64,000 nucleotides of DNA. It comes from a virus. A program made the position numbers and the translations under genes. The stretch covers positions 32,001 to 96,000 of IMG/VR virus record IMGVR_UViG_3300022188_000007, one strand, 5' to 3'. The notes under the pieces are model-generated. The model was not told where the DNA came from, made no database searches, and was given only the letters and a program-made list of their open reading frames with translations. Shown piece by piece: positions 1-61,800 of this stretch; position 1 is the first letter of the stretch; the number at the start of each line of letters is the position of its first letter.

Positions 1-357
1 TTAGATAATATTCCAGGAGCATTAACTAGTAATGTTAATAATTTTATTAATGCATTAAGCCTTAGAAATGAGACATGTTGTTTAAAACATGGACCCAAAG
101 AAATGAAGATTAGGGCACCAAAAGCGGTAGATTTTTTATGTCAGTGTTTAGGTCTTAAAGAGGAAAATAAAACCACCGAGTTATTAAGAATCCCCATTTG
201 TAGTGAATGTGTGGAAGGCTTGTTTAATTCTGAGTGGTTATTGGTGTACTGTGTGAACTGTAACAGCTCACAATGGATATTTAAACCTGAATCATCTATT
301 AAAACTACTGAGGATATGATTTGGTTAGATGAATGTCCTGAGTGTAAGGAGGTGTAG
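1..357 (+). CDS. Cys-rich (Zn-finger) hypothetical protein, 5'-truncated by the window edge
   Basis: The frame of ORF 103..357 stays open back to base 1 (LDNIPGALTSNV...). Motifs CCLKH, CSEC, CVNC, CPEC. Confidence 0.6.
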   Translation, partial: LDNIPGALTSNVNNFINALSLRNETCCLKHGPKEMKIRAPKAVDFLCQCLGLKEENKTTELLRIPICSECVEGLFNSEWLLVYCVNCNSSQWIFKPESSIKTTEDMIWLDECPECKEV

Positions 358-358
358 T

Positions 359-580
359 ATGCCAAAAACAAAAGGTTGGGGCTATTCAGAAAAAAAGCTT
401 CTCAAAAAGAACTATGGTAAACTAACCATTAAAGAGTTAGAACAGTTATTTCCAAATAGATCAAGAGAGTCGATAAATAATAAAATAAAAAGACTTAAAA
501 AATCAGGAGAAATAACAGAAGGTAAAGACGAGGATACTATAAAAAGATCCTATGACCAACGTGGTACAGAAATAGAATAA
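359..580 (+). CDS. Small Myb/SANT-like helix-turn-helix protein
   Basis: AAGGAGG RBS then ATG 359. WGYSEKKLLKKNY...TIKELEQLFPNRSRESINNKIKRL matches the W-x3-E-x2-L...RS-x2-S-I pattern. Confidence 0.55.
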   Translation: MPKTKGWGYSEKKLLKKNYGKLTIKELEQLFPNRSRESINNKIKRLKKSGEITEGKDEDTIKRSYDQRGTEIE

Positions 581-4178: not shown

Positions 4179-4190
4179 TGAGGGGGAGTT

Positions 4191-25583: not shown

Positions 25584-26723
25584 ATGACTACTGAGATAAA
25601 AATAAGAAAGGGTACAGAAGCTCAGCTCCCTACATTAGGACTGGCTGAGCCAGGATTTACTACAGATACTAAATGTTTATATATTGGTGATGGTGTAGGT
25701 AATATACTTATAGGCCCAAGCGGTAATAATACTACTCTTAGTGGTTTGCCATTAGCTGCTGTTCAGGCACGTGGGACATCTAATATTACATTAACTACTA
25801 CTTTTCAGTATATATCTTTTGACACTTTAGATGTATCTACTGATACTTCAGTATTAGAACTTGATAATCTTGTGGATTCTAGGATAAATATTAAAGAAAC
25901 TGGAGTGTACTTAATAAATTATTCTTCTAGTGTCAGGTCTTCTGGTAATAGCAGAGATGTGATAAGTAAAGTGGTGGCTAATGGTACTAATGATTTAAAT
26001 GGAAGCTATGTATTACAGAATTTATATCAGGATGAAACGCATAGTCAAGCAAGTATGTTTATAGTTAGTTTAACTACTGGAGATTTTATTGAGCTAGCTA
26101 TTTCTTGTGGGTCTACGCCGGTAGATTGTTTATCAGATCAATTCTTAAGTATAGTAAAACTTACTGGAGCGCAAGGCCCTCCTGGAGCAGATGGCACGAA
26201 TGGTTCAGGATCTACTTTAATTATAAAGGAAGAGGGCACTAATTTAGTTAATACCCCTCATTCAGCCATAAATTTTATAGGGGAAAATGTAACTGCCCAG
26301 GATGTAGGCGGAGGAGTAGTAGATATAACTATTAACATTCCAACTTCTTTATCTTTTGGAACCTGGTACGCTTGGGGTGGAGATGCCTCTTTATCTAGTA
26401 CTAATAGTACTAGTTATATAGAAAAAGCAAGTCTATCAGTAGTTGGTATACCTACTGGATACTATAGATTAGGATGGTACTTTGAGTGGCGTAGAAAGGA
26501 TACTAGGTCTGATTTTGAGGCAAGAGTAACTATAGACGACACAGATACAGTGATGGAGATTAATCAAGAGTCTAAAGATAATAATTCATACCATGCAATT
26601 AATGGATTTGTAATTACTCAATTATTAGCAGGTGATCATTTCTTTGATATAGACTATGGTGGGGAAACAAATAAAACATCATATATTAGAAGAGCACGAT
26701 TAGAAATATGGAGGGTAGCATAA
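25584..26723 (+). CDS. Tail fibre-like protein (Mtd-type N-terminus, C1q/BclA-like domain, short collagen-like stretch)
   Basis: IKIRKGT...EPGFTTDTKCLYIGDG, IKETGVYLINYS...LTTGDFIEL, GAQGPPGADG. Confidence 0.65.
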   Translation: MTTEIKIRKGTEAQLPTLGLAEPGFTTDTKCLYIGDGVGNILIGPSGNNTTLSGLPLAAVQARGTSNITLTTTFQYISFDTLDVSTDTSVLELDNLVDSRINIKETGVYLINYSSSVRSSGNSRDVISKVVANGTNDLNGSYVLQNLYQDETHSQASMFIVSLTTGDFIELAISCGSTPVDCLSDQFLSIVKLTGAQGPPGADGTNGSGSTLIIKEEGTNLVNTPHSAINFIGENVTAQDVGGGVVDITINIPTSLSFGTWYAWGGDASLSSTNSTSYIEKASLSVVGIPTGYYRLGWYFEWRRKDTRSDFEARVTIDDTDTVMEINQESKDNNSYHAINGFVITQLLAGDHFFDIDYGGETNKTSYIRRARLEIWRVA

Positions 26724-40867: not shown

Positions 40868-43800
40868 TTGGTTAAAAAATATATATTCGAACATGCTTCA
40901 AATGAATCTAAAACATCTAGTAAGAGCGGAGGTTCTAAAGGCGTAGCGGTTGTAGAACTTTCCAAATCCGATCAAGCAAATCAGAAAAAAGTCCATGATG
41001 GCTTAAGAGAGATCAAGGAAGTATTAAAAAAACAAACTAAAGACACTTCTAGTAGCGCACTAATGCGCATGCTGGAAAAAGTCATAAAGGCTTCAGGCCA
41101 ATCTTCTAAGATAAGTTCGGCAGAACTTAAAACACTAGCCACAGCTTTCGCAAATGAACTCTCACGCAAGGGTTTTGGAGGGAGTGGTAGTGCTACAGTT
41201 TCCGGCCCACAGGGCAAAGCCTTAGATCCTAATATTATTGCTAAAGCAATAAGTAACCAAATAGCCCCAGCCCTGAAATCAGTTTTCAAATCTTTAGAGA
41301 CTAAAGATATTAAAATTGATCCTAAATCCCAAGAAGCTCTTCGTAAAGCGATGGAGTCTTCTGTATCTGATATTATCCCTTCAAAATTCTATAAAGTAAT
41401 AAATGACTTAAATTCTACACTTACCTCTGTGTTGGCGTTAAGTAAGACTAGCTTAAAGGCGTTTAATTCTGCAAAAGGAATGGCCTCTGACAAAGGCGGT
41501 CTTGAAGTAAAAGAGATTACTGGTTTTTATACTAATTTAAAAAAAGGAAGTAGCGAACTAAAAACTTTAGTAGGTCATATCAGTTCTCTTGTAAGAGAGG
41601 CAGATAAGCTTCCAGCTGAGCTTAGGGCTGCCGCCAAAGGTATGATAGACGCCGCCAGAGAAGCAAAAGATAAAACGGTACGTGGTGCTAGGGCGGTTCG
41701 TGAGGGAGCTCAAGTCCCTCAAGCCAAACTTGTTAAAGAGGTTACTAAACTTTTAGCTTCAGAGATAAAAAAACACACAACTGGTTCCACCAATCCAGCC
41801 GTCAACAATCTTATAAAAGCCCTTGATACTTTTAGTTCTAGCGCCGATGAGTTGACTAAATTAACTAAAGCACTTGATAATTTTGGAAAATCTATAGGCT
41901 CATTACAGTCAGACGGCGGAGTAGACCTAAAAGGCCTTCAAGGTGTATTGGGTAAGTTAGAAAAGACTATTAGTGCTATACCAACAGAAATTAAAGGTGG
42001 GGCTGTAAAAAGTGATGAGTGGAAGGATTTCATAGATCAGGCTAATAAAGTTATAAACACTGTAAAAACATTAGTTGTAAAGATTCAATTACCTAAAGAT
42101 GAAATAGATAGGTTCGTGAAACAGTTACCAGGTGAGTTTGACGTGGTAGCTAATATAGACATTTCTAATGTGCCTAAGGCTATAAAAGAAATAACTAAAC
42201 CGGTAGGTATACCAGTTAAGACTATCTTTTCTGCAGATGACATACAGAGGCGATTACGTTATGAGCATCCTGAAATTAGTGTAACCCAGCGAATCACAAC
42301 AGTTCATAAACAAGTCGAGGAATACCAATCTTCTAAGTCAGGTAAAGCCGTTAAAGAAGTTAGTTTACCTAATGCTAAGAGTGAAGCAGTTAAATTTTCT
42401 AAGGATCTTAATACTAGTGTAAATAATCTAATAAAAGTCTTAGAAGGGCTAAGTAAAGTTCATGCCACTGCTTACGGGAAACCGGTAGCTCAAGGATCAG
42501 CAGGAGATATAGCTAGTGATAGAATATCAGAGTTAATACATAAAATCCAAGACAAGAGAGGTAATACCTCTCAATTAAGGGAGTATGTAGATAAAACTCA
42601 AGGCCATGCCCATAAGACAGGAATACTTAGTCAGGCTGCCAGAGATGGGATTAAAGAGGTATATGAGATATTACACTCTACAACTGATGATGTTTTTAAT
42701 TCAGTTAAAAAATCTTCAGATCAAGCAACAAAGAATCTTGAGAGTGTAAGTAAGGCCTTTGATGCTGTAAATAAATCTTCGAAACAAATGGCAGACACCG
42801 CTAAAAATAATTTAGCTCAAACCCAACCATCTACAATACCTAGTAGTAGGCATGGAGCAACGTCAGTTAACACTGCCAGACAGGCACCTGCTTCTACTCA
42901 AAAGGAAGTATATAAATACTTTGAAGGTAATATCACACCTGGCAAGACAGCAAATATTGATGCAGGTAAGAAGTTAAATCTTGGAGAGGATTCTAGGAAG
43001 ATAGTTCAAGAGCATGTAAGCGGTTTAGCAAATTCGTTGTTAGACTTACAGTCGTATATGGTATCAACCCTTGAGAAAGAATTTGCTAAAGTACGTAAGG
43101 AAAGCAACTCTGGTAAAGATTGGAGGATAGTAGGTAAAACTGATACTGGCTCTATATCCGATTATTTTAAACTCACTGAAGGGTATAATCAAAAAACTTC
43201 AGGCAACGAGTATAGTTTTAAAATTGCGGATGTAAAAAATCTTAAGAGGGTTACTGGTAGTAAGACTAATGACCCCACAGCATTGATTAGTAAATTTAAA
43301 GAAGGGGTGTTTAAAGAGTTATTAGCTAAGAATGAAGCTACTATAGCAGAGTCAATTGGTAGATGGATGAAAAGGTTCTCAGAATCAGATATTTCTAGTT
43401 GGAAAGGGTTAGACTCTAGTACAGCAAGGCAATTAGCCGATATCAAATCTACCCATGATAAGGGACAAGGGACCGCACCATCCAAGAGGATGGTAGAGGC
43501 TATAAAGGGGTTAGGGGCTACAGACCCATCCGCCTTAAATAGAATATTTGAAAAGACAATTAGTGACATTGAAGCCACTCGTAGATTAGGCGAGAGAAAG
43601 TATGGCAGCTCAGTTCTAGTTAAGAAAATAGCTATACCAGCAGCTAAATTATCTGCAACTGGAGCGGCTACTATTGACACAGCTACTGGTAGTAAACGTA
43701 TCATTCCTAAATTTGCAACGTATAAAACCGGCTTTGAGAAGGTCTTCGAATCACTACAGAAAACTAAAACTTTTGATGTAGAGCAGGATTATCAAGGTAA

Positions 43801-46800
43801 AGTTAGGAAATTGGGAATCAGGCCTTCCGGCACCCAGTTTGAGGAAGCAAATAAAGTAGCTAAAGCAATGTTGATAGACCTAAGTAGGGTCAAGGATATT
43901 GTAAATGCTACAGGACAGACTACAGTGGATTCAGGCGCTGTTAGGGCTGATCTTGCTAAGCAACTAGAAACCTCCGTCGTATTAAAGGCAGGAAAATTAG
44001 AAAAATCAAAACACGTGACATCGGCTTCCGATGTATTAGCAAAAATAGACAAGAGTATTTATGCTGAGTTTGCTTCGGGCACAAAAACAATGGAAGAATT
44101 CATAGCTGCTACTTCTAAGGCCGGAGTATCTGCTTATGATCTAGTTAAAGGTATGGAGAGTATAGACTTTCAAAATATATACCAAATTTTTCAGAAGATA
44201 CTTGAGGGAACTGACTCTGTTAGTTCACCTCTTAAAGCTGTAGGAAAGAATCCAGATTTTTCTAAGAGTGTGAGGGATTTGGAATCTTATATTGGTAAAA
44301 TGGTGGGCACCATACCTATAGCGGACCCATCTCGCCCAAGACGGGCGTCTCATCAAGAAAAAGTAATTAATCTTATGAGTATGACCTCCCCTATTTACAG
44401 TCAAAAAGGTAAGGTAGGTACACAAGGATTGACCGCAGAAGGCCAGAAACAGTTCCTTAGAGATTTGAACTTATCTTTGCGGGAGTTTGTCAGGGATACA
44501 GCTATATTAAAAGATGCTGGTATGGGGCAGGGTAGATTACCCGCAGATGTTAGGACTCTATCTAGTTTGGGAGTACCTGAATCTCAAGCTGGAACTATAT
44601 CAGAATATAGAAAAGACGGTAGAAATGAAAATACGAAATATCTGGCTGCTCTTAATGCTACGACTGTTAAAATGTATTCTGATTCACTTTCAGAGATGGC
44701 TCCGTTTGGAGCACAATTTCAACAACTAGGTAGGAATATTTCCAACACTACTAATGCTATGGCATATAGACCTGGTGGAGGAGGGGTAGGGACAGACTTC
44801 CCAAGTTTACGTTCTGAGAGAGAAACTAAGTTGATCTCTGGCGGAAGGTACGGCGACAAAGGTTACGGTTTTAATGTTATAGCAGAGTTAAGAAACACCG
44901 CCTCTACTTTTGAAGATCAGATAGTAATATCAGGGAAGCTTGCTGATGTATTAACTTCTGTAACTAAGACTATAGTTCAACCAGATAAATTAGGTAGATT
45001 GAATTTAGTTGGTTCAGATGGCCAAGTGTCCTCATCACAGGAAGGTAGGGTAGGAGATATTAAACCTGATCAACAGTTAATAGGTGCTATTGAAACCGCC
45101 AATAAAGTATTTCAGGATGTTCTAGGAGTTAAACAAGAGTACAGAGGTAGAGCTGATAACGCACTTATCAAAGAGGTAACGAGTGCTTTAACTACCGTTA
45201 GAGGTAAAGATGTGCAAGTCCAGTCAGCCAAAATAGCTGAAACTTTTTTTAACCACTACGGTAGAAAGTTTACTACTAGGTATGGGTCCAAGGGTGTTTC
45301 TATAACAGCTCCTGGCGGTACAGGTGAATTAACAGGTAAGCAGTTAAAAGATTTATATGCGGATAAGAAAGTAAAAGTTTTAAGTAAGTCTGAAAGAGCT
45401 ACTGCTGGATTAGGGACTGTAGCTTTACCTAAAAGTATGGGACAATTAGTGCAGGAAATATATAAGGAGTATGCTAAAGAATTAGGACTATCTAACGCGG
45501 ATCTGGATGAGTCTCGTAAAGCGCTTATTAATAGTGGTAATAAATTCATGCTTAGTATGTTCACTGATTCATCCTTAGGGGTAGTTCCTGAAGGCAAAGA
45601 CGTAAAAGCACAACAGACTTTATTTACTAAAACAAAAAAAGCTTTAGCTAAGTTAGATTTTGATTTAGCTAAAGATATTAGCGGTATAGAGGGCTTAATT
45701 GAAGTTTATAAAGGAATGGATGGCTCTAAATTATATGAAGAAAAGCCTATAGATATTCGTATTAGTTCTCATGGTATTGCTAAGCGTGGACTTCAGGCTG
45801 AGAATCTAGAAGCTATAATGAATAATGTCATAGATGCTGGAGTTGCAGGTTCTACATCTTTAAAAACTAAATTTGACCCAAGTACTTATAAAAGATTATT
45901 GGGTACAGAAGAAGACACTACTGGTAAATTTCCAAGTCTTAGTGAGATTAGTAAGGCTTTAGGTTTTGAGAGTCAAGGTAATCCTAAAAAAAGAGGTCTC
46001 TTAGTCAAGGACATGATGAAACTACTTAAATCTAGAAATGTCCCGGGCACTGAGGATAAGTTACTAGCACAAGCCGGAAAACTAGCTGATTTGGAGATTG
46101 GATCTAGTTTCTATAGTGATATGCGAGATGAGTTTGGAAAGAGCAGGAAGAGCCTAATAGGGCCCAAATTCGTTGAAGTAATCGAAGACCCTAATGCAAA
46201 TCCAGCATGGAGCGAAACTGATATAAAGAAACAGGTAGCCGGCCAGAAGATAAATATACCTGCCTTCGGCGCTTATGCTACTGTATTTGGCGAGCAATCC
46301 CAATTCATTAAACAGATGACCTCATCTATTCCTTTAGACTCTAAGAAGCACTGGGAGTACTTAAAAGCTCTACAGGTATTAAATGATGACAGTTCAGAGA
46401 TGGCAACGCAGTTGTTATCCTCTGCTCAAGAGGTAGACGTAAGTAGTTTAAGAACCTTTACAAAATCTACTGGAAAATTTGTATCTAGAGCATCAATGTC
46501 TAATATAACTGAGATGCCTGAAGAAGATCAAGAGAGGGTTTTAAATGATACTATATTGGATATTGCAAAATTTCCTGGAGCAATGAATTTAAAAATACCT
46601 AGTACTAAAGATCCTTCTAAACGTGAATCTTTTTATGTACCAGGTGCATTAGCTCGTACTACTTACCCTGAACCTTCTTTGGCAGGAGAACGCGGCCTAG
46701 ATATGACGGCTCGTAGATTACAGGCAGTCGTAAACGCGGCAAAGAACGTAGACGAAGTAGCCGGCCAGTCAGATGAGTCAGGTAGTAAAAAGTTATGGAA

Positions 46801-49800
46801 TACTGTAGGTAGAATTAAGAAGAGATTAGCTGGTTATAGAGGGAGAGTTAAAGGGATAGTTGGGGAGTCTCCAGGTACTAAACAATTAACTTCTGGTGAG
46901 GTAGGTGAACTTGAAGGTATTTTAAGCACACTATTAGTTACATTAGATCAATCATCTGCCGATGAGAGAATGCTTTATAAGAATCAGCAGCATTTAAAGG
47001 GTGGTACTAGAGGTGATGTTATCAGAGCGTTTAAAGATAATAAATCTGGTGAAGGCAAATCACAGGCCCAAGTTTACCAAACTACTATAGATCAGGCTGT
47101 GGACCAACTTATAGGCCCGCAAGGAAGCCCCGACCCTAAAAATCCTCAGTGGGCCAGTAGGTATGACAAGCAGGCTAATGTATTAGGAGGTAAGGCTTAT
47201 AACGCTGGTCTAGCATCAGTAGAGCAGTTCGCCAAAAGCTTGAATGTACAACCATCTGATTCTGAAGATGACTTAAAGAAAGCCCTTCAATCATTAGAAA
47301 GAGCGAAAATTGAATACTATAATACCTTGGCTACTTCTGCTTTAGGTAAGACAGGTTCAGTACAAGAATTTCTATTTAATAGAAAAATGCCAGCAGTAAT
47401 GGGCAAAGCCATAAATGCTACAGTGGATAAAACAGAGGATCTAGATAATTTTAGTAAAGAACTGCTTTCAATCAGCTCGTCTGCTGGAGGTATAGGGGTA
47501 GATTTAAGTGCTTTAGAGGAAGCCTCTGAAAATATAAAAAAAATAAAAATAGAGCATGCTGAAAATGTGGAGAGTGCGCGTTCTAAAGGGATGCCTGTAT
47601 TAACTCAACATCAAGTTGGTATCCCTGAAAGTTACGCATCTAAGCTACCTACTAACTTTGCTAGAAGGTATGAGGTAGATGGAGGAACCGTACAAGAATT
47701 AAAAAAACCTATTTTTGAAAAATCTAATTTAGCTAAAATGTTGGATTATAGAGAAGAGATACAAGGAGCCCTTGATAATGTAGCCCCCGGTATGCGCTCT
47801 AAGATGGAAGCCTATTTGGAATCAGAGCTTTCTCCTTATTTAGAAAGTATGCGTTTCCCTGTCACAGGTGTAGCGTCTATTCAGCCATATGAAGCCAAGC
47901 TATTAAAACAAGGAGAAGGTCGTCAAATGACCAAACATACTTTAATGGCCCCAGGTATGCCAGAGATAGATATGGGTAAGTTTGATGCAGCTAAAAAACA
48001 AGTTGACTCAGTAATTGACGAACTAACCGAACAAAGAAAACTAGAGTATAAAGAAGAGTCCCCTGATCTGGAAAGAATAAATCAGTTAACTGCTACTATA
48101 GCCGCACTAGATAAGGCTATCTCTGATGTAATTCCTAAGTTTATAGCAGTCCAACAGAATCTAGATTTTGACGGTGATCAGATACAATTACACGCCGCTA
48201 AGACAGCTCTAGCGAGGCAAGAAATTTCACAACACTTTAAAACTATAACTGATTATGATAAGCAGGGAGGCACTACTGCTCAAGCTTTAAGAGACCAATC
48301 CACCTATAAAGCTTTAATACCATCTACAGAGAAATATACTTTAGCAGAACAGCAGATAGCCTTTTCAAAGAAGTTCCCAGAAAAAGAAGGGTTCGGTTTT
48401 ATGACTAAACCTTTCCTTACTGAGGGGCTAGATTATTTAAAACCTCAAGAACAACTAGATATTTTAAGTACTTTTCCTGGAGCTGGTGGAACAGAGAATA
48501 CCCCATTAACTGTTTTAAATAATCTATTACCAGAGCTTTTTAGAAATGAAAAACATATGGCTAAAATTGCCATGACATTGCAGGCAGTAAAACCGGAAGC
48601 CGGTAAAGATACCGCATCCAGTCAAGCGCTATTAAACGCATTAGCAAAAATGAAGCCGGTAGAAGACCAACCCAGTAGTGGTAGAGAAAAGGCCGTATTT
48701 GAAGAAGGTATAAAGACTAAGTTATATGATACTAAAATGACTAATGCTATTAATGCCAACTTTTTTAAACTTAATACCGGACAAGACACTGAAGCTCTGA
48801 ATAGGCAGTTGAAGTTATTTGAAAGAAACTTAGGGTACGGTGGCGGAGTTATACGACAGGGTGCTCAATATGAGCCTACTGCTAATTTAGCAAGTCGTTT
48901 TCCCCTAGACCTTAAATCCATGGGCAACACAATGGGGGAAGAACTACATACCATGATGAATGAGTTTTTACGTGTAGGGGTACAGAAAGGGCTGGATGTA
49001 AAACATGCTGGAGAGACCCCAATTGCTACTGAAATGGCAAATCTAATATCTAAAGGGTCCCCAGGCGTTTCAAGCTTAATAGAAAAGATAAATGCCGGAG
49101 AAGGCTCATACGGCGACCTTACTGATTTTGCAGAGGCAAATAAGAAATCCTTAGGGCGTAGATTAGGTGGTATGTCTACCGAAGATTTGTATCTTGATGC
49201 AGCCAGTATTGCTGGAGGTAGAGGTGAGTCTACTACTAAACTAGATCCAGGTAATAGAGAAGAGCTTAAAGAATACATCACTAAATCTATAGGATTTGAG
49301 GGCTTTCTTCACGAGCTGAGTAATCAAGTAATTGAAGCGGCGCATGAAGGGCTTATGAAGTCAGTTAGTGCTTGGTCCGATACCAAAAAACAAAAAGAAT
49401 TTAAAGGTAGTTCAGCAGAAGACTATGTAAAGGCTTCTATTAGAAAACAACTTAAGGGTGACGGTATTAATATATTGGATTCAGCGGAAAGTCCTCTAAT
49501 GCCTTTATATAAAATGAGGACCTCTGGCGCATCAGGCTATCAACAACGTGGTCTATATCAGGATAAATATGGTGACGTAGAGGCTCCTGAACTCGAAGGA
49601 ATCTTCCAAGGCAAAGAGGCTGATGCTTATGCCGCTAAGTATAAGGAAGCTAAAGCAGTAGCTAAAAATATACAGGATGCTCTTATAGACTTTAGTTCTA
49701 ATAAAGGTGGTAATAAGAAAGGCAGTTATTCAATGCTACTTGAAAGCAGTATAGAGAATATCTACGCTGATCAGAAAGAGATTATGAAGTTAGTACAGGA

Positions 49801-52800
49801 AATGACACTTGAGAAAGATAGAACTTCTTCAAGTGTAATGGATAGATTAAGTGGTGACGCACCTATGCATGGTTTTGCCAGGGAAGCTCTAGGTAAGAAG
49901 AACAGTAAAACTCAGAAAGAATTTCTAGAGAAATATAGTAGAATTGTAGGAGTTCCTAGCCTAGGTCAAGAATCCACAGCACTTCTGAAACAAGAGTATC
50001 TTCCTCAGGCAGCTTTCCTAGCTAATGCAGAGAAGGGGCCAGCACCACTTCAAGGTGAAACTACAGACGGAGCATATCAAGATATATTAGATGCCCATGA
50101 TAAAGCTGTAGATAAGTTAAAAGAACAATATCTAGCGGATGCTATAGTAATAGCTCAAACAGATAATATATTAAAAGCAGCCAAAACTAAAACAGGAGAA
50201 GCAACCTTTTTAACGCAACTACTCCCCACCTCTAAAGGTGATTATGCTAGTAAATCTTATGATGATCGTAGACAACGTATATCTCAAATCGCAAAGGAGA
50301 AAGTCCAAAGAGCTAATTTTGAACAACTCACTCATCCAAGAGGCTTAGAGAGAGATGCTTTTGGCAGATCAATGCCAAGTGGAGGAGGTCCAGGAGGTCC
50401 AGGAGCACTGAGCGTAGGTGGTACAGGGCCAATTGTGGACGTAAATATTGCTAGTGTTGCTGAAGGTGTAGGCGTCTTCCTAGGAAGGGCAGCCGGAATG
50501 GCCAAGACTACTGAGGATACTAGTCCTAGATTTACAATTTCTGAAGAATTAGAAAAAAAATTAGTAAGGGCTGAGGAGATAGTAGATGAGATTACCGGTG
50601 GTTTAAATAAGGCTACAGGTGATAGTTTTGCTAATAAATATAGAGCCAGTGGGTTAAAGGGAGGTCAAGGGCTAGACCAAATAAATGAAATTAAAAAACA
50701 GATGCAGGGCATCAAAGCGGGTAGGAAAGCCCGAGATATTCTAGATTCATCATCTTTACTAGGTACAGGCATTCATGCTAAACTAGAAGATAGTTATAAG
50801 AAGGAGTATATAACAGAGAGACCAGTCAGGTACGACTCAGTAGCTGGAGAAATCTCTGGCACAGTAGATGCAATTAAATATGATGATAATGAGATTGCTA
50901 CTCATATAGTAGATATTAAAACTACAAGTCAAAAGAACTACGACGATTTAAAACAAGCTGTAGCTAGATTCCAAGAAAAAACTGGTAAAGAAACTCCTAC
51001 ACTAGATGAGATAAAAGACTATGTAGGTAAGAATCTAAAAGATAGTAAATTAGGTGATGTAGCCTCTCAGCTGAATCTATATCTTGCTGCCACCAGTGAG
51101 GATGCTAAAGCATCCGCTCATTTCTATAGTAGAACTAACCCTGATCAAGAACCTATTAAGCTAGACCAGTTTTTTGATAAAGAGCGGCTAGATAATGATG
51201 TTGCTGCGGTAGGTCAAGCTAGAAGGGAGATTAAGTTGGAAGGCGGATCATTCGCTAAAACAGCTTCTTATACTGAAGCCGAAGAGATAGAAGTTTTACT
51301 GAAAAAGAAAGAAGTGGCCGAAGCAACTATAGCTGAATTAATAGCTACCAGTACAGAGTATTATACACTAGTAACAAAGCAGGGTCTCCGTGCAAGAAAG
51401 AATCTACCTTCAACAGGCGGCCTATCTGATAAAAGTTTAAATATGATAGGTACACGTGCTAGAGAATTTCAAGCACAGTCTGTTAAATTTGATGATATGG
51501 TTACAGCGAATCCTATAGCTGAAGGTCGAGAGACTTATAAAGTGCATCAGAACCTTAATGTGCTGCATGAGCGTGCTAAATATTTTCAACAAAAAGAGGG
51601 TTATGAAACGTCTGGTCCCCGGTTTGATAAAATGCACCCCCAGATCCAAGAAAGAGTAACGGAGCACGGCGAGAAGGGCCCAGGGGGCGCAGCCTTTAGT
51701 GCCCTAGTGACTGAGCTTAAAGATACTGGTAAAATTGAGGGCGGAGAGATTAATGCAGCATGGAAGGCATACAGATTAGCTGTGGGGGATTACTTTGTTA
51801 AAAAGATGGCTGCTGCAAGAAAGGAATTAGATAATACAGACCCAGGGGCTGATAATATAGTAAATGTTTTCGGTGCCTACCAGAAGTCTGTTCAAGCTTT
51901 TCAGGATTTTGCTAAGCATGGTCTAGGCAAACCTACAGATATTTATACTTATAATAAACAGTACTTACATGCAGAATCTGCAAGAGGGGCCGGAATTTAT
52001 ATGGATTCAGCTGCCCTTCAAAAAAAAGCATCTCAGCCTCTAGGAGAAGACCCCACATTACGTAATATCTTCCAAAATATGACTAATCTAGAGGGCGACT
52101 CGGTACCAATTCCTAGAGATTCTGTTAGGGCAGCATTGGAAGATTTAATGGATATGGATAGATCATTGATTAATCTTTATACAAATGCAGAAAAAGTAGC
52201 CCATATGGGCAAAGATATAAATCTAGGATGGAATTTTGATAAAGTAAAAGGCGGATTATCTAGATTAAGAGCAGCCCTAGACTTACAACTGAAACAACCA
52301 GTAGGTGAGCTTTATAATGAAGATCAGATAACCTATCTTAGAACAGTTTTAAAGGAATTAAAAGGACTGGAGACTATTTATATCAGCCTAGATCTGGATA
52401 CAGACTCTTTTAAGAATCCCACAGGTGAATATAAATTCCCGACTTTAGTTCCTGTACCGAAACAATTATCTAGAGACCAGCAGTCTGCCATGCATTACCA
52501 GAATATTGAAAAAATTAAAGGTCATTATAGAACACCAGAGGCAGAAGGTGGGGCCAGGGAAGGGGATTCCTTTGTTTATAATGCTAAGACTTTCGGGCCT
52601 AGCGGTAAACAGATGGATAACCAGAGATTTGTAATTTCTAAATACGGTGAAGCAATAAATAGTGCAGGGAAGTCTGTTCCAATTCTGAAAAGTAGGCTAG
52701 ATAACTTAAATAAATCCTTAGTGGACGGTAACAGAACTTTCAGTGTTGCTATAGAGAGAGTAGTTAAATGGGGCGCAGCCGCCACACTAGTTTATGGTGG

Positions 52801-55800
52801 ACTAAGTTATATTAAAGATGCTGTTAAACACATGTCTGATGTTGAGACTGCTATGGCTAGATTACAGATGGTGATGAATCCATTAACTACTGATTTCGAC
52901 TCTCTACAAAAAGCAGCTTTAGGTTTTGCTAAGCAGTATGGTGTGGAGACTACGGATGTTTTAGGTAGTATGAAGGTATTTGCACAGCAAGGTTTGAGCC
53001 AAGGGGAAGTAGAAGAGAGGACCCAAACTTCTACATTAGCAGCTAATGTTACAACTTTGAGTGCTGTAGACGCTACTGAAGCCTTAACTGCAGCTATGAA
53101 GGTATTTAGAGCCGAGGGTGAGAGTTCTATGAGGTTCTTAGATTCTTGGAGTCAAGTAGAGGCAAGGGCAGCTATTACAGCCGGCGATTTAGCCGATGCC
53201 ATAAAAAAATCAGCTTCTGCTGGTAGGAATGCCGGGTTCACTTTTGATGAGTTGAATGGTATGGTAGCTGCTATAGGGTCTACTACACGTCAAACAGGTA
53301 AAGAGGTAGGTACTTCTTTAAGATTTATCTTCAGACGAATTTCAGCGGATAAAGGACCTAAAGCTCTAAAAGGTGTAGGAGTAGCAACTACTACACCGAA
53401 AGGCACACTCAGACCTGGTTATAAGGTACTTGAGGATTTGGCAGGTAAGTGGGAAGAGTTAGAACAAGCTCAAAAACTAAGTATAGCCCAGGCTATTGGT
53501 GGTACTCGTCAGTACAACCAGGTATTAGTATTGATGGATAACTGGGACCAAGTAGTGAAAAGCACAACCGATAGTATGAATGCTAAAGGTTCAGCTGAAA
53601 GAAGAAACCTTAAGTTGATGAAAACTTATTCTAAGCAATTAGAACAAACTAAAGCAGTCTTTTCTGCGTTAAAAGTAGAAGTAGGTAAAGTAGTTCTTCC
53701 TAGTTTTAAAGCAGGTCTAACCGGTATAAGAGGATTGGTAGAAGCGGTGAATAATGTCCCCGCATCTTTTAAATTAGCTGGAGCCGGGATGGTGTTATTT
53801 GTGGGATATATAACTAAAGGGGCTGAGGCCCTTAATACCATAATGAGCCTAGTAGATAGAACTAAACTTTCTTTTTCAGCCCTAAAAGATGATTTTTCTA
53901 AAGGGATAGATAAAGGGATGTTTGAGGTCTTTGGTAAAGGTACTCCAGAGCTAGATTCAGATTTATTTGGTCTTTCTAAGTTAAGTGATACTGGTACTGT
54001 AAATATTGATGATATGGAAAGCTCTTTAGGTAAGTTAGCTTTCGGGGCTTTATCAGCAGGTCAAGCCTTCAATAAATTCGCAGGCATAGTAGGCTCTGAC
54101 TCTGCGTCTGCAGTTTCTGCAGTCGGTAAATACGTGACAGCCTTTGGCGCTCTAGTAGAAAAAACAGGCACCGGTATATCTTTAATACCAGGGATACCTG
54201 GTCCAGTAGACGAAGCTGTAGGGGTAGCAACAAGCTTTACAGGCAAAGCAATAAAAGGTACTGGCGGAGCTTTTGATTTTGTAGGTGATAAGGTGGGTAA
54301 AGGGGCCCAGTCCTGGATGGAGGGCTTTGCTTCACAGAATACATCTGCAATGAAATCAATGGCCCCACTTTTAGGTACATTAGGGGGGATAGCTTTATTA
54401 GCCCCAACAATAATAGACGCATTCAAAAACTTAACTCAATCTGCAACAGACTATAAAGATGAGCAGTTAAATAGGTTGGAGGTAGATGCTAAGGAGATTG
54501 ATTCTCTACAGGGATTAATTACTTCATATAAAAATTTACAAGATCAGAAAGAGAAGATAACTAGATTATCAGACCCAAAGGTTCAGGCTAAGGGTATAAA
54601 ACGTGGCGAATATAAAAGCCCTATCTTGGAAAAGATTGACGCTTTAAAGGCTACTAGAACATTTGATTCTAACTTAGGCGCTATGGACCCTAGCATGATA
54701 GCAGGTTTCGATGAGTTTGGCCGTGTAATATTAAGTAATACAGCTAATCTAACAGGATATCTAGAGGAATTAAAAAGAGCCAAGACTGTCACACTAGCCT
54801 TATCTAAACTTAAAATAGCAGCCCGTTTTACAGACGATCTTACTGAGACGGGGGGCAATCAAGAATGGAAGCAGCAGGTTAAATCACTTGCAGCCGAATT
54901 CCCATTAATTGGTGAAATGTTGGCTAAGAATATCACTGTAGGGCCTAAGAAAGCACTAGAAGTTATAAGAGAAGAGCTAGATCAACTTTTAGCGGCTAAA
55001 GCAGAAGCCCCTATGTCTACGGCATTTGATTCAGACATAGAGAGATCATTAACAGCACATGCTAAAGTATTAAAAACTTTCAGTGCTACATATGCAGAAC
55101 TAGGTAAAACCTTAAGTAGTATAAGTACTGAAGGTGCTACTGTAACTGATATCGCGGATCTATATAAATCACCAGACGCATTGAAGACGTTTGATCTTCA
55201 GGCCGCATATGAAGATAAATACCAGATTGCTGAAGTAAGGGGAACTGTTAGTGGTAGAGACATCGCAGCATCTAAAGTATTAAGAACTCAATCAAGTGGA
55301 CTGGGTTCTTATATAGAAGCGTCTAGTGTTCTTACTGAAGCTAATTTATTTTCGGCAGGACGATTACCTAGGAAACCCAAGAAAGATGGCACTATAGGTG
55401 CATCAGATAATGACCTTGTTACACTTAATAAAAACTTTGCAGAGAAATATGGTATTGCTACAGGCCAAGCTACTTTGAAAATAGGTAAAGACCATAAGTT
55501 ATTCTTAGAATTTATAGACGCACTCACAACAACCCCGACTACTAAAGAGTTTTCACAAGCAGAAATTGAAGCAGCAGCAAGAGCTTTTTTCCCTGTTGAT
55601 GAGATATTACAAAAGGCCCAAATAAGTGTAACTAAGCTTAATACTTTTGTAGCTGGAGCGTCAGCAGGTATATTAGGGGTATCTGAAAAAAAATTAAATA
55701 CACGTCAGTTTGATTTAGGTGAACGCTTCTACGATCAAATTCCTACTAATGTATTATTACAGACTGAAAAAGGTTACAATACAAAAACAGGTACTTTTGG

Positions 55801-58800
55801 AAAACAGGACTATAAAGAAGATTATAGTTCAGACTTTATTGATAAGTATTATGATCCCCTACAAAAGTATAACACAGCCAAATCTGCCTTAGGGGGAGAC
55901 AACGCCTCATTGGACGCCTCAGTATTAGGAGGTCTGGCCGAACAACTTCGAGGCCTACAAGATATTTTAAAAAACAATTCAATAGCTTTTCAATATAGAG
56001 CAGCAATAGAGGATTTAAATAAAGCACTGTATGAGGGGGCTAGAGCCACAAGGAAAAGTATACTTGTAGAACAAGAAAGGCAAAAAGTTGATAAACATAC
56101 TGCTGGGTTTATGCGCGGTAAAACTAAAGGCGTGGCTTCTATTGATCAGGGGGTTACTAACTATAAAGATTTAAATGATCAGCAAAGAGCCTCGTTAATG
56201 TTTAAAGATTATGATGCCCTAGCAAAGAAAATTCTTGTACAAGAGACTAGTATTGAAGGCTTAATAGGCCAGTCTAAGTCAGTTGCAAGCACCTATGCGG
56301 ATATCCAAGAGATAGGTAAAGCTCCTGAAGGTTTTGATGCAATAATGACTAGGGGCCGTAATGTTGAGTTAATGAGTATTATGGATAAAGTAGATAACGA
56401 TAAGGGGGCTGCTCAAATTTCAATGAGAGTTTCGGAACTGAAGTCTCCTTTAGAGGGTATTTTAGCGAACACCGACATAATGGCCGCCAATACCTATGGA
56501 AGACCAGGGGATATTAAAAGAGCTGCAGCTACTGCAGAAGAGAACTTAGTTATAGCCGAACAAAGGAAGCTTGCAGGTAAAGGCCCATTGGATAATACTG
56601 TTGACAATAAAACTGATCCAGTGAAAACATTCAAAAGTCTTCAGAAACTAATGACCATCAGAGACGCCGCCGCAAAGGAAGGAGATACTGTTACTGTACG
56701 TGCACTGGACAATACACTTGCTGATTCTTATGGTAGGGCTTTGAAAGTATATGGTATGAAGGATTTTGCTAGGTTAACTAAACTAGTTGCTCCTACCAAG
56801 TTTTTTTCTTCCAATAACAAGGAATTAGTGGCATCAAGGGCATCCGCTTTAGCACAAAAAGGTATAGGTACAACTCCAGACAGAATGATGCAATCTATAG
56901 AGTCTGCTAAGATGGCAAAAGCCGCCCTAAGGACTCAGAGCTTTATTGATAAGTTAACTGCCTTTAAAGCCCCTGAGAAAGAGATCGAGCGTGCAAAGAA
57001 TAGGCAGTGGTATGTACCTTCTAAAGAAGTAAGGGACTATGAAAAAGCCTACGCAACAGATCCCAGTAAACCACTAATAAATCCTAAAATATTTGAGAAG
57101 GCTCTAATCGCTGGAGCAATACTTCCTGCTTTTCAGGGGAAATCTTTGGGTGAGAAGAGAACTACTATAGAAGATCAAATAAACAGGTTACAGAAACAAA
57201 AAGATAATTACCCTAAGGAAGGTAAAGAGGCTGAAAAGCTAGGGATTGATAAAAAAATAGAAGGCTATCAAAAGATATTAACGGATGATTTAGATCCTCA
57301 ACAATTTGTAACTTCCACTTTACAAGGGCTATCAACAACAGCACTTGCTGCATACGAAGGGGTGGGAATATTCGGAGGCTCCCAGTCTGATAAAGAAAAT
57401 ATGGCTGCCGTAGGTGCAGGTCTTTTTGTTATAATGAAATCACTAGAGTCTAGAATAGGTAAAGACAATATGCCACAATATTTCAAGGACTTTTCTAAAG
57501 AAGCAGTGGATAAGATTAAGATCGCGGTTGAAACAGGAGATTACTCTGATATGGCCAATGATCTAGGTAAAAAAACCAAAAAGTTTTTAAAGGGTTTTAA
57601 TAAGTCCATGGAAGCTCAAACCGAAAAGGCGGAAGACGCAGGCATTGACCCTGAGAAAGACATTAGAGAACGTCGTAAAAGACTAAAAAAGTTAAATGCT
57701 ACCCTGGATCTGGAGAGTACTACTAAGTCTCTTAATGAGGTCACTGATGTAGGGAGCAACAATTTGTTGAGAGGGTTAGAAGCCATAGCAGTTGTAATGA
57801 CTGCGCAAGCAGTTGGGGGCTGGAAATCTAAAAAAGGGGAAACAGCAGCCAGAGTCAAGGATGGTGTAAACGTAGCTAAACAACAAGGTCTAGCTTCTTT
57901 AGCTTACTCTGAAAAGAATGCTGCAGCCGTAGATGCCTACATAGGAAAGCTTGTACTGACCCAAAAGGAGTTGGCAGAGAAGAAAGGTCCTGATGGCGGA
58001 GCAATTAATATAGTTATGGATGTTATGGAGGACTTTAAAACTAGTTTAACATTGGCTGCTGCCGAAGGTAAAACACTTGAGGAAGCAATGTCAGGGCTTC
58101 AAGATAAAATAGGTGACACTAAAGTTTTTACCGGTATTTACACAGATGTGGCTAAATTAATAGGAGCTATGGAGAACTTTAGAGCAGAACTTCAAAAATC
58201 ATTTACAACTTTTGATGATAAACGTTTATTAGATCCTACACGTTCTTTAAAGGGAGAGTTATTGGGTTTTGGGGGCGAGACAACTCTTCCAATAGGTAGA
58301 CGTGACATGTCGACTCAACAAAGAGCTTACGCAGGTGGGTCAGACTCCTTAAGGTCATCCTTTGCAGTAATGTCTAAAGGGATTTTGATACAAGAGGCCC
58401 AAATAAAAACTTTAGGTTTTGTTAGATCTCAGATAGCTGACACTGAACAAAATATAGATTTTGGTACCAAATATGGAACATCTGATTCACAATTAGAAGC
58501 TTGGGAGATGCACTTAAAGGGGCTTGAAGGCACTCTGGCTAACTTACAAAACGTGACTACTTTAACTAGCCAACAGTTGCAGGCGTTGGGTACTTCTATG
58601 CGAGGGGCTATTAAGTACTCAGAGGCTATCAACAAATTAAATGATGCTTTGGCAGATGTTTCTGTGGAGCACGCTGTAACTGGTATAACAGGATTAAAAA
58701 CTTATTTTGATTCTTTTGAGGTGTTGCTAGGTGGCTCAGATCCGTTAGCCGCCCAACCTGTTTCACCAGAACAAGAAAGAATGGGAGCTAAGGTAGGAGT

Positions 58801-61800
58801 AAGATTAGTTTCTGGTGAATCAACCTCTATGGATATAGAACGTGCCCAGTTACTCACAGAGATAAAGAATGCCACAGACTCTAAATCTAGAACTGCTGCT
58901 AGTATAAAACTAGGAGATCTTGATGAGAAGTATAGAAGGTTAGGTATTGATAAAGAACAACAAGTCGAGAACCAGCGGCTTGGTTCTACTATGAAGCCTT
59001 ATGAGGATTTTTACCGTAATATGGAAGGGTTGTTAGGAAGTAATGAATTAAATGATAAACAATATGGAGAAATTAGTGGCGTTAAAAATGAATTTAAAGA
59101 AGCCATGAAAAGAGCTACGGAAAAAATACCTATAGATGAGGCAATAGCTCAGCTGGAAGGGCAAAAAGACAACTTAGGGGCTAATCAATTCAAGGAAGCC
59201 ATGAAAGAATTAGTGGCAATGAAAGCAACAGGGACTACACAAGTATATAGAGGTATGGATAGAACCAAAGACTGGCAAGGTATTATGAGTAGAGTCATGG
59301 CAGGTTATGATAAAGAAATAGATGCATACAAGGCTGCAACCGGTACTACTGATTTAGATACTTCTTTAGAAAACATGGTAACTAACCCACTAGTAAATGT
59401 TATTGGGATGTCTAATCTACTTCTAGCTGAATTAGTGACACACTTTGTAGACAAAAAAACTGCGGCAGACATACTCAATGGGCCTCAAAAAAAAGAGTTA
59501 GAACCAGATTACTTATTTTCTTCAATAGTCCCTGATAAAAAAGTTGTATTAGCAGAAGCACAAGATTTTCTGAAAGGCATTAGTATTAATCCTGCGGACA
59601 ATTTAAAAACACAGCCATATGATTTCAATAACGACAATATTGATCCAAATAGAGGCCGCCCTACATTGTTTGGTAGACCTGTAGGTCCAATAAGTAAAGA
59701 TGCGCTTGGGTTGCCTCCAATACAAGATAAGGTAGTACCTCCACCTCCAACAGAGGTCGAATTAGCTGCTAAAAAGCATCCTAGGTTTAAGGAAATGGAG
59801 ACTTACGTGAAAAATATAAGCCTTGATCCTATAGCTAATTTAAAAACAGAGCCATTTGGCCCTAATTCTGAGCAAGACAATTCACAAATTGTAGCTGTAA
59901 ATGAACTTCAGTTAGTAACTCTAAAAAAAATAGCTACCAGTCTTAGCAGTAATGGTTCTGGTGATTCCACTGAACCTACTACTAAAGCCGCAGGCGGAAG
60001 AATCTTTGGAGAAGGTGGTCCAAGAGAAGATAAGGTACCCGCTTATTTAAGTCCAGGAGAGTTTGTAATAAGAGCAGCTGCTGCACAACGGCTTGGTTAT
60101 GAGAATCTAGATGTAATGAATAAGAAAGGGCAGGTCCCTGTGGCTTTTGAGAGTGGGGGCTCCTTAAACCAGAGGCACATAACACAAGCACATCAGTATT
60201 TTGTAGATCCTGATGCGGTACTGCCCCCAGAGTTTAATCCAGAGTCAGAGCTATATAATAAAGGAATAACAGGTAAATATATTGATTTACGGAAGTCAAT
60301 GCTTTCTGAAGAACAGCGGGAAGCTGTTGCAGGTATCTCCACATTAAAGGGATTATATAATACTTTTTCTGATATGGCTGGTAATGATGAGGATAAATTA
60401 AATTCTTTATTTCCTGAAGATATAATGCCTGTAATGGAGCGTTTCGAAGAGAACAAAAAAGCCCAAGAAGAGAAAGGTATATTGGGTTGGATGAAAGGAA
60501 AATTAAAAACCAAAAATAAGGCAACAGCAGGTGCAAGGGCAGTTACAGGCCTTGATAAGGCCGAGTTATTAAAAGAAATAAGTACCTATGCTGACGGTGG
60601 CCGAACCATTAGTACTGTTACTGGTAAACCTATACCCACAGCAGAGGAAACAGAAGAGGGTATGGCAAAGATGCGAGAAGCTTTAGGTTTTGTAGCTTCT
60701 GTAGGTCACCCAATTACTTCTATCCCCACCTCTATCTATGGCATGTATCAAGGTTTTAAAGAAAAAGGTCTTAGTGCCCAACCAGCTGTTGAAGGTTTTG
60801 GGGGCTTAGAACTATTAAATTATATACCACAGGCTAAAAGACTCGGTAAAATGAAAACAATTTTAAGTAAAGGTTTTGGTAGATATTTTGATAACGCAGG
60901 GGACGTGAATGATTATTTTGATATTACTGGTAAGTTAGGGGGTAAACTAACTTCATCACACGGAGATGATTTTGACGCGTTACTAGCTTCCGAGAATACT
61001 TTTGAGGAGGGCGGCTTATCTCTTTGGGATAAATTACTGGGTAAACAGTTCGATCCTACAGAGAGATGGAAGGGTAAAAAGTTACCATCAGGTATGGGAA
61101 AATTTGATAAACCTGAGGTGACAAAAAAATTAGAAGACGAAATAAAAGCTACAAAACGCCATGATGTTCATTCTTTTAGTTTCCTACGCGAAAAACATGG
61201 TTTTGTGAAAGCATTACAACTTTATGGTGCAGGATCTCGTTTACAAGAAGGGGCAGATATATTAAAGAAGGCTGATGGTGGTAAGATAAGAAGTTTTATA
61301 GGTGATTCCACAGGAGTAGCAGAGGTAGGAGAAGAGTTATTTAATGAAAGAATCAATGCCCCTGTACTAACTCGGTCTGTGGCCAGTATGATTAAATCAG
61401 AGTTTGGCACCTCAGACGTAGGTAACAATCAATTAGGTGCGCCAGTAGATAAATTAATGGGCACTTCGTTTGATCCATCTGCTACCATGTTAAAAGATAG
61501 TAGAGCTTTTACAGCTGTTGGTAATAATATAAAATCATATGCTTCTACAGCCGATTTTAATACCGGTAGAGCGAAGTCTGATAAATTGAAGGGCAATATA
61601 GGTAAAGGTAATATAATCCCAGGTATGGATGGATTAACCTCTATATATGATGGATTCTTAACTTCCAAATACAATAGCCCCTTCTTATCGCAAGAAGAGC
61701 AATCCAACAATAGGGCTTGGTATGAAGCCACTAGAGAGCAAGAGATAACCAATAAACAGAAATATGAATTATTAGGTGATGCAAAAACAGACGCAGATAG

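Follow-up and report, generated by a model that had tools for sequence, protein, structure and literature searches.

One tail tape measure protein that carries its own RNA polymerase (RNAP) has been described: gp96 of Thermus phage P23-45, a chain of 5,002 amino acids (aa) in which the N-terminal ~1,100 residues make up a two-barrel polymerase that is active and is carried in the virion (Chaban et al., Nat Commun 2024, PMC10770324). This enzyme transcribes the pre-early genes of the phage, is active as fragments of ~1,050-1,200 aa, and is flat and clamp-less, its flatness having been proposed to allow passage through the tail; it groups with the non-virion RNAP (nvRNAP) gp64 of the phage, within a clade made up of single-subunit enzymes from phages and plasmids, to which QDE-1 also belongs (PMC10770324). 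The QDE-1-like clade also holds gp66 from crAss-like phage phi14:2 and YonO of a Bacillus prophage (PMC10770324). Each of these two is a single polypeptide holding both barrels, and gp66 is virion-borne and in some phages forms part of a huge polyprotein. The polymerases of jumbo phages such as phiKZ and AR9 are highly divergent homologues of the subunits beta and beta' which work independently of the host polymerase and are assembled from four or five separate polypeptides; the virion polymerase of these phages is packaged in the head and is not fused to a tape measure. The present work concerns a giant open reading frame (ORF) of 7,801 aa in a window of 64,000 nucleotides (the whole stretch of DNA that was analysed), which covers bases 32001-96000 of the 144,485-bp IMG/VR record IMGVR_UViG_3300022188_000007, rated 55% complete by CheckV. 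The product of this ORF is likely, in our judgement, to be a tape measure protein with a fused beta-beta' polymerase that is delivered by the tail to transcribe the first phage genes. It would be the second transcription enzyme known to be delivered by a tail, after gp96, the one described so far, to which it has no sequence relation; no paper was found that describes a polymerase of the beta-beta' type inside a tape measure.

A sequence-only reading of the window had proposed an active, streamlined single-chain polymerase, probably needing no alpha or sigma, at 44690-49010 (aa 1274-2714 of the giant ORF). The ten peptides that it quoted all lie in one frame, in the order and at the places given (Table), but this frame is no gene of its own and belongs to the 7,801-aa ORF (40868-64273), in which the polymerase is an internal module of a tape measure. 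The ORF begins at a TTG codon that is preceded, at a distance of 8 nt, by the ribosome-binding site GGGGGG. When the BLAST coverage by 48 full-length relatives is mapped along the chain, two conserved blocks stand out. The first, at aa ~700-2950, is present in 86-98% of these relatives, with a dip to ~70% near aa 2000, and the second, at aa ~3550-5150, is the tape-measure core. The protein varies over its first 600 residues and over its last 2,600, coverage of the N-terminal region being 7-51% compared to more than 90% from aa ~700. The polymerase module therefore extends over ~2,250 aa (window ~42968 to 49747), and no part of the protein is better conserved than this module and the core of the tape measure. 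The module starts ~570 residues before the point originally proposed, 44690 being no more than the point at which the second, C-terminal half of the beta-like part begins (aa ~1274, which is the place where phages of the phiKZ/AR9 type split beta into two proteins), and it is not streamlined, since it comprises a whole beta homologue with beta1/beta2 lobes as well as a clamp-like beta' N-terminal region. Because 92-98% of the 48 full-length relatives cover both blocks, that of the polymerase and that of the tape measure, the fusion is, as far as these alignments tell, ancestral to the family.

The family itself consists of ~100 uncharacterised metagenomic relatives of 6.4-12.3 kaa which are almost devoid of cysteine. 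An exhaustive phmmer search with aa 1300-2499 against 1.84 billion representatives returned 109 proteins, of which ~60 have at least 3,000 residues, most of them 6.4-8 kaa, with the match at an approximately equal internal position. As in the present phage, the giant protein of the relatives is a single ORF. Loci with relatives numbered 34 in the IMG/VR scan and 80 in the scan of JGI metagenomes, on contigs of up to 285 kb. In one distant relative (L035, G002:C1 ~98.8-136 kb; IMGVR_UViG_3300005077_000001, 256,335 bp, 97% complete) the frame that holds polymerase and tape measure reaches 12,316 aa. Two candidate stand-alone relatives, P0105 and P0104, contain no Pfam domain and look like pieces truncated by contig ends; they were set aside.

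By its sequence matches, the product of the giant ORF is predicted to be the tape measure of the tail in a large phage. It matches 16 PHROG families, of which 14 are tape-measure families, PHROG_4211 being the best (Table). A single copy of the tape-measure domain, within the giant ORF, was found in the contig under study. The same holds for three of four large relatives that were searched, the giant ORF of the fourth being cut by the contig end. Downstream of the giant ORF are genes with Big_1, laminin-G and discoidin domains (adhesin and lectin domains), which are typical of tail tips. Because no tail sheath family was detected, the gene content suggests a tail that is probably of the non-contractile type.

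For the beta-like part, an AlphaFold2 model of aa 701-1850 was built from a 70-sequence alignment (A3); its predicted local distance difference test score (pLDDT) is 80 and its predicted template modelling score (pTM) is 0.78. A Foldseek search of the Protein Data Bank (PDB) with this model gave 357 matches at E<=1e-3, and the top 50 listed consist entirely of second-largest RNAP subunits, of bacterial, archaeal, eukaryotic and poxviral origin. In a VIA-align run against 48,161 representative chains only 18 chains reach Z 5, and nine beta-type chains lead at Z 13.8-17.2. The best row is the Xanthomonas beta subunit 6j9e_C (Z 17.2, root-mean-square deviation 5.2), whose residues 24..1285 are matched to residues 7..1080 of the model with 437 of them aligned; Pol I A135 follows the model over 496 aligned residues (Z 16.8), and the jumbo-phage chains AR9 7s00_C (Z 16.8, 18% identity) and phiKZ 7ogp_C (Z 15.5) are also matched. 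Below the beta-type chains come isolated beta1/beta2 domains (Z 7.3 and 6.1) and then unrelated chains at no more than 5.4. A search of BFVD returned Rpb2 proteins of giant viruses and, from an uncultured siphovirus, a 'Minor tail protein' that is possibly a family member. In the predicted structure the full beta domain set is thus present, with the beta1/beta2 lobes upstream of the barrel, and not the barrel alone.

Within this part, the residues E649, D650, R766, K767, K775 and G776 of the alignment are invariant in all 70 sequences of A3; they include E1349, D1350, R1466, K1467 and K1475 of the giant ORF, so that the two conserved basic residues of barrel B, K1467 and K1475 in GRKFTTRYGSKG, are both present. 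Alignment of the beta-like profile with Escherichia coli RpoB by hhalign picks out GDKMAGRHGNKG (1062-1076) and PVDIVLNPLGVPSRMN (1092-1118). Barrel B also carries an insert of ~110 aa between TFEDQ and GRKF, modelled as a long beta-hairpin at a pLDDT of only 41-66. A sandwich-barrel-hybrid 'flap' inserted in barrel B is a feature of the multisubunit-type clade (Iyer et al. 2021, PMC7824862), and the modelled insert could be a reduced flap.

The beta' half was examined with a model of aa 1300-2499 built from 27 sequences (pLDDT 74, pTM 0.50). Foldseek found nothing for this model at E<=1e-3, while VIA-align matched it to more than 40 beta', Rpb1 and A' chains (Z 8.7-9.6), the alignments covering 240-283 residues at 13-18% identity. 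Every one of these alignments places model residues 541..1180 (aa 1841-2480) onto the first ~500-600 residues of the subunit (~10..520), and an archaeal clamp construct, 3qqc_A, is matched at Z 9.0. The beta' half is nevertheless less strongly supported by the models than the beta half, because noise rows consisting of helical bundles reach similar Z. Evidence of a different kind comes from profiles. Pfam RNA_pol_Rpb1_2 (PF00623), one of two families whose search the sequence-only reading had recommended, matches at 1e-3 at barrel A and in 13 of 27 relatives, and is the sole family matched repeatedly. The three top local hhalign alignments of the beta'-like profile with E. coli RpoC are colinear and fall on GKQGRFRQNLLGKRV (321-347), LRLHQCGLP (359-376) and NADFDGD (457-481; E 0.006), so that these comparisons, top-ranked and colinear, recover independently the cellular motif pairings that had been made by eye for RpoC and RpoB. 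The three catalytic aspartates that had been reported as intact, D2433, D2435 and D2437, are invariant in the 71 sequences of alignment A4, together with R2329, P2331, T2333, G2334, G2436 and H2442 (in alignment numbering, R489, P491, T493, G494, D593, D595, G596, D597 and H602).

The beta'-like module's C-terminal part contains two conserved blocks, AxxAQLxKxHTGxxTE (~48722-48832, aa ~2619-2655, core ~2625-2645) and NExxRFxIQKGMDVKHAG (48956-49015, aa ~2697-2716). By eye, AQLxKxHTGxxTE resembles the core of the bridge helix (KTANSGYLTRR) and QKGMDVKHAG a segment of the trigger loop (TQLTMRTFHIGG), resemblances that hhalign does not support and that stand as conjecture. If the assignment of the blocks were right, the peptide VQKGLDVKH, which had been called bridge-helix-like, would belong to the trigger loop; its original designation was not confirmed. 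An ESM Atlas feature search with aa 2500-2960 gave only tape-measure-like clusters at low scores (up to 0.87) and was uninformative, and a predicted complex between the barrel-B and the barrel-A/C-terminal regions scored 0.17 against a mark of 0.32, which is evidence neither way. Along the chain, the beta lobes of the polymerase come first and are followed by barrel B, which bears the two lysines; next are the clamp-like N-terminal region of beta' and the DFDGD-bearing barrel A, and last is the conserved C-terminal block. The motifs, the Pfam match and the structure models, in which barrel A aligns with the active-site region of beta' and barrel B with the barrel region of beta, all support the central proposal of the sequence-only reading, a single-chain two-barrel polymerase with colinear beta and beta' elements.

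Across 70-71 sequences that have 23-75% identity to the giant ORF, no change is seen in the aspartates of DxDGD, in either barrel lysine or in the ED pair, a degree of conservation that points to selection for catalysis in the polymerase module. One more distant member reads GDKFISRGGNKG and GFEDSIIIG, nearer still to the cellular consensus. Sequence similarity to known polymerases is much harder to find. A phmmer search and three family hidden Markov models (HMMs) run against PDB sequences reached no solved polymerase, giving only spurious coiled-coil or WD40 matches; a tblastn search with the C-terminal half of beta and the beta'-like part found no match in 50,697 phage records; and a PHROG scan of the whole giant ORF found no polymerase family. 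That the enzyme might belong to a lineage distinct from those of P23-45, YonO, crAss-like phages and phiKZ holds well for P23-45, since neither gp96 1-1200 nor a profile of P23-45, stolb3 and TSP4 exceeds an hhalign probability of 1% against the alignments A2, A3 and A4, and tblastn with gp96 finds only Thermus phages. For the YonO, crAss-like and phiKZ enzymes, which were covered only by the general tblastn and PHROG searches, no sequence match was seen. The module is accordingly described as a predicted single-chain beta-beta' polymerase, probably active, of a lineage that has no detectable sequence link to known ones.

The comparison with described systems can be made at several levels. The module resembles the multisubunit RNAPs of cells and large DNA viruses in a fold match that extends over nearly the whole of beta and the first ~500 residues of beta', and in the colinear motifs ED, GxK..GxKG, PxDI, GKxG, LxxHQxGxP, RxPxxxxxSxQ and NxDFDGD; it differs from them in that both subunits lie in one chain within a virion protein, in the lack of zinc-binding cysteines, and in an HMM-level sequence similarity below detection. 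With the phiKZ and AR9 enzymes it shares a phage origin and highly divergent beta and beta' homologues, and no PHROG or BLAST similarity to them was found. Unlike gp66 and YonO, it has a beta-type domain set and is fused to a tape measure, and no chain of the gp66/YonO type is among the matches listed for the beta-like model. P23-45 gp96 is the closest functional precedent, because the polymerase is an internal module of a tape measure. In both proteins a two-barrel DFDGD polymerase and a giant tape measure share one chain without cysteine (gp96 has none in ~5,000 aa), and the likely role here, by analogy, would also be the transcription of the first genes from entering DNA. Beyond the absence of a sequence relation, even at the profile-profile level, the differences are that the module is internal (aa ~700-2950) and ~2,250 aa long rather than N-terminal and ~1,100 aa; that whole beta lobes and a clamp-like beta' N-terminus are predicted here, whereas gp96 is clamp-less; that the structural matches are to multisubunit enzymes rather than to the phage/QDE-1 clade; and that no second, non-virion polymerase paralogue was found.

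The absence of cysteine extends over the whole of the 7,801-aa chain, compared to 94.5 cysteines expected from the other ORFs of the same phage of at least 150 aa, in which cysteine makes up 1.21% of residues (P ~1e-41). Across 59 relatives of the giant ORF there are 27 cysteines in 393,729 aa. The zinc-binding cysteine clusters of the clamp are therefore lacking, and the earlier observation that no cysteine occurs between 46261 and 46640, from which the loss of the beta' zinc-binding domain had been deduced, is true in that there are no zinc-ribbon cysteines but says little about that domain, the entire protein being without them. A chain with no zinc sites and no disulfides fits one that crosses the envelope and refolds unaided.

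If the module is a tail-delivered polymerase, the giant protein would, by analogy with gp96, be built into the virion with the tail and would be released at infection by way of the tail tip; hydrophobic segments in the core of the tape measure would contribute to a channel through the envelope, and the polymerase module would then act on the incoming DNA, transcribing the first genes of the phage independently of the host RNAP. The steps of incorporation, exit through the tip, channel formation and transcription are taken from the P23-45 precedent and from general siphophage biology. The lumen of a phage tail is a few nanometres wide, and because a folded module of ~250 kDa cannot fit into it, the module would have to be stored extended or unfolded, or to protrude at the head-proximal end; it would travel unfolded or extended and refold afterwards. 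In P23-45, 5,002 residues correspond to a tail of 800 nm, or 0.16 nm per residue, which suggests that the polymerase part counts toward the ruler in that phage, and the same ratio would give a tail of ~1.2 µm here.

A scan of the 144-kb contig for DxDxD and a search of five large relatives with the family profile revealed no second polymerase, and in the relatives that are 87-100% complete (among them G001, a 268.8-kb contig rated 100% complete by CheckV, and G002, 256.3 kb) the family profile matches the giant ORF only. The Pfam family RNA_pol, of the T7 type, had no match in the contig or in the 87-100% complete relatives, a weak negative for which the control also matched nowhere. Among these same relatives a gene with sigma-70 region 2 is present in one genome only. 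A single polymerase and a rare sigma factor fit a programme that, we infer, would be started by the tail-borne enzyme and finished by the host polymerase. A count of over-represented k-mers gave only words resembling ribosome-binding sites and no promoter motif.

Three other explanations must be weighed against a tape measure with a fused, tail-delivered polymerase. The module could be a catalytically dead structural remnant that provides only length or bulk, and it is true that tape measures tolerate large insertions and that the N- and C-terminal parts of the giant protein vary freely; this is nonetheless highly improbable, because filler would not keep all of the residues of two-metal catalysis invariant in ~70 relatives as divergent as these, nor would it be expected to form, with the tape-measure core, the best-conserved part of the protein. 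An active two-barrel enzyme could also serve another purpose, as a primase or replication initiator, a QDE-1-like RNA-templated polymerase or a PolD-like DNA polymerase, given that two-barrel enzymes include RNA-dependent and DNA polymerases, that QDE-1 is among the matches (7y7p_A, Z 8.4) and that a nuclease-like domain follows in the same chain. Such a role is improbable: the beta-like half matches complete beta subunits of DNA-dependent RNAPs along their whole length, none of the 50 rows listed with the beta-like model is a chain of the QDE-1 or PolD type, and the beta'-like half aligns over 240-283 residues with beta' and Rpb1 compared to 174 with QDE-1. Rather more weight, although it is still on the unlikely side, is due to the suggestion that the giant ORF encodes a polyprotein which is cleaved in assembly, the polymerase being packaged and ejected untethered as separate cargo, in the manner of crAss-like gp66 or the virion subunits of phiKZ. 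Proteolytic processing is known for several tape measures, and a Gly/Pro linker lies between the modules here. Processing has also been reported for crAss-like polyproteins (bioRxiv 10.1101/2020.03.07.982082). No protease site or protease gene was identified at this locus, however, and the fusion is kept in all full-length relatives; the cleaved polyprotein differs, moreover, from the explanation favoured here only in the tethering step.

Several observations weigh against a tail-delivered polymerase itself. The homology rests on predicted structures and short motifs, the profiles reaching no solved polymerase; in the first model, of aa 1300-2499, the barrel-B motifs fall below pLDDT 50; and a comparison of the C-terminal part with E. 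coli beta' 730-960, the region of the bridge helix and trigger loop, gave an hhalign E of only 0.64. The genes directly upstream of the giant ORF belong to no recognisable family, and the location of the ORF in a tail module is inferred mostly from the downstream genes. With the contig 55% complete, another polymerase could lie in the missing half. Finally, the internal placement and the far larger size of the module relative to that of P23-45 leave room for doubt about how it would be released or positioned.

A second fusion family, with ~100 diverged metagenomic members, may turn a single precedent into a strategy, and the loss of cysteine in both families may mark proteins that refold after ejection. 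A more far-reaching proposal, about which we are of two minds with a slight leaning toward doubt, is that tape measures acquired polymerases at least twice independently, and that here a near-complete beta-beta' enzyme of the cellular type is stored free of cysteine, extended and non-native in a tail about a micrometre long, to refold into an active enzyme of ~250 kDa after ejection. Such a protein would provide a delivery route for a full-size polymerase of the multisubunit type, at odds with the idea that only a flat, clamp-less enzyme passes a phage tail. How an enzyme of this size could be stored in and delivered through a tail tube is a mechanistic question that is now directly testable. 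A naturally fused, zinc-free, single-chain beta-beta' enzyme would also bear on the evolution of two-barrel polymerases, and might be a self-contained transcription enzyme. The polymerase is invisible in the standard annotation of the relatives; among ten that were looked up, the three names seen that had been given by the source were either 'TP901 family phage tail tape measure protein' or 'hypothetical protein'.

Table. Features of the giant ORF, with nucleotide positions in the window and residues of the predicted protein.
Feature	Window position (strand)	Residues (aa)	Basis or remarks
Giant ORF	40868..64000 (+); stop at 64273, 273 nt beyond window end	7,801 in all	ORF call on whole record
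N-terminal region	40868..42967 (+)	1-700	Poorly conserved; no known domain; Pfam matches only sub-threshold
Beta/Rpb2-like module	42968..46387 (+)	701-1840	Model m0c5e759b55e2, Foldseek, VIA
Beta1/beta2 (protrusion/lobe)-like part	43010..44329 (+)	~715-1154	VIA 3mlq_A Z 7.3; 4kbj_A Z 6.1
Barrel B (beta-type double-psi barrel), core motifs	44867..45790 (+)		TFEDQ (E1349, D1350), GRKFTTRYGSKG (K1467, K1475), PIDIRISS..KRG
GFNV..EDQIVIS	44867-44932	1334-1355	Peptide quoted earlier
GRKFTTRYGSKGVS	45260-45301	1465-1478	Peptide quoted earlier
PIDIRISSHGIAKRG		1627-1641	Peptide quoted earlier
GQKINIPAFGAY		1792-1803	Peptide quoted earlier
Beta' N-terminal clamp-like region	46388..47848 (+)	1841-2327	VIA, hhalign
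GKTGSVQEFLFNRKM	47345-47389	2160-2174	In clamp-like region; peptide quoted earlier
LTQHQVGIP	47600-47626	2245-2253	In clamp-like region; peptide quoted earlier
Barrel A (beta'-type double-psi barrel)	47849..48223 (+)	2328-2452	R-x-P-x-TG and NLDFDGDQ, helical hairpin inserted between
MRFPVTGVASIQPYE		2328-2342	Peptide quoted earlier
QNLDFDGDQIQLH..		2430-2452	Peptide quoted earlier
NLDFDGDQ	48164-48178 (D2433, D2435, D2437)	2431-2438	R2329 and P2331 ~101 residues upstream
Conserved C-terminal part of beta'-like module	48224..49747 (+)	2453-2960	Conservation in A4
VQKGLDVKH		2705-2713	Peptide quoted earlier
Gly/Pro linker PSGGGPGGPG	50375..50404 (+)	3170-3179	
PD-(D/E)XK (Cas4/RecB-like) nuclease, weak match	50801..50962 (+)		Pfam PDDEXK_1 E 0.04; PHROG_1706 E 2e-4
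Tape measure core	52736..54559 (+)		PHROG_4211 E 3.9e-80; Pfam PF10145 E 1e-27
PhageMin_Tail domain, within tape measure core	52907-53503	4014-4212	97.9 bits, cut-off 33.2
Hydrophobic segments after PhageMin_Tail	53756-53815 and 54356-54427	4297-4316 and 4497-4520	Hydropathy
7-residue repeats built on VEDK, near C-terminus	63449..63817 (+)		

Some further features of the giant ORF lie outside its two conserved blocks. Between the polymerase and the core of the tape measure lies the nuclease-like region (aa ~3000-3500), which aligns in only ~55-60% of the relatives, and a nuclease signature without Fe-S cysteines (..GTGIH.., ..DIKT.., QLNLY) can be read at window 50640-51240 (aa ~3260-3460). 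In the variable C-terminal part the motif GG..(x)..P..A..GE[FY][VI]I is found in two copies, at window 60050-60080 and 63200-63230 (aa ~6370-6405 and ~7420-7455), and the VEDK-based repeats comprise at least 14 tandem copies of 7 residues, for example KVFTIEDKVFKVEDKIFSVEDKKLTVEDK.

A scan of 185,579 species genomes gave four matches, in metagenome-assembled genomes (MAGs) labelled Woesearchaeota, Gammaproteobacteria, Fermentibacteria and Altiarchaeales (L124-L127). These four MAGs come from unrelated phyla, and the family members in them are probably phage contigs that were put in the wrong bin, so that the matches do not allow a host to be assigned.

Elsewhere in the window, two adjacent proteins (24530-25573 and 25584-26723) begin with an Mtd_N (Major tropism determinant N-terminal) domain (E 1e-9 and 3e-12), the second having also a BclA C-terminal-like domain, and the pair may possibly be receptor-binding fibres. 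Two more very large tail-region ORFs lie downstream of the window, at G000:C1:123645-133820 and 117624-123215; laminin-G and discoidin domains are present in the longer ORF, of 3,391 aa, and the other, of 1,863 aa, matches no family, and both are rich in cysteine (30 and 39 residues), unlike the tape measure. Upstream of the window, G000:C1:15270-18143 (L037) encodes a hybrid histidine kinase of 957 aa, an unusual phage cargo, with SBP_bac_3, PAS, HisKA, HATPase_c and receiver domains, and just before the window a PIN-PhoH-like ATPase fusion (PIN_4 E 2e-17, PhoH E 1.5e-21) is encoded at G000:C1:30042-31394 (L038).

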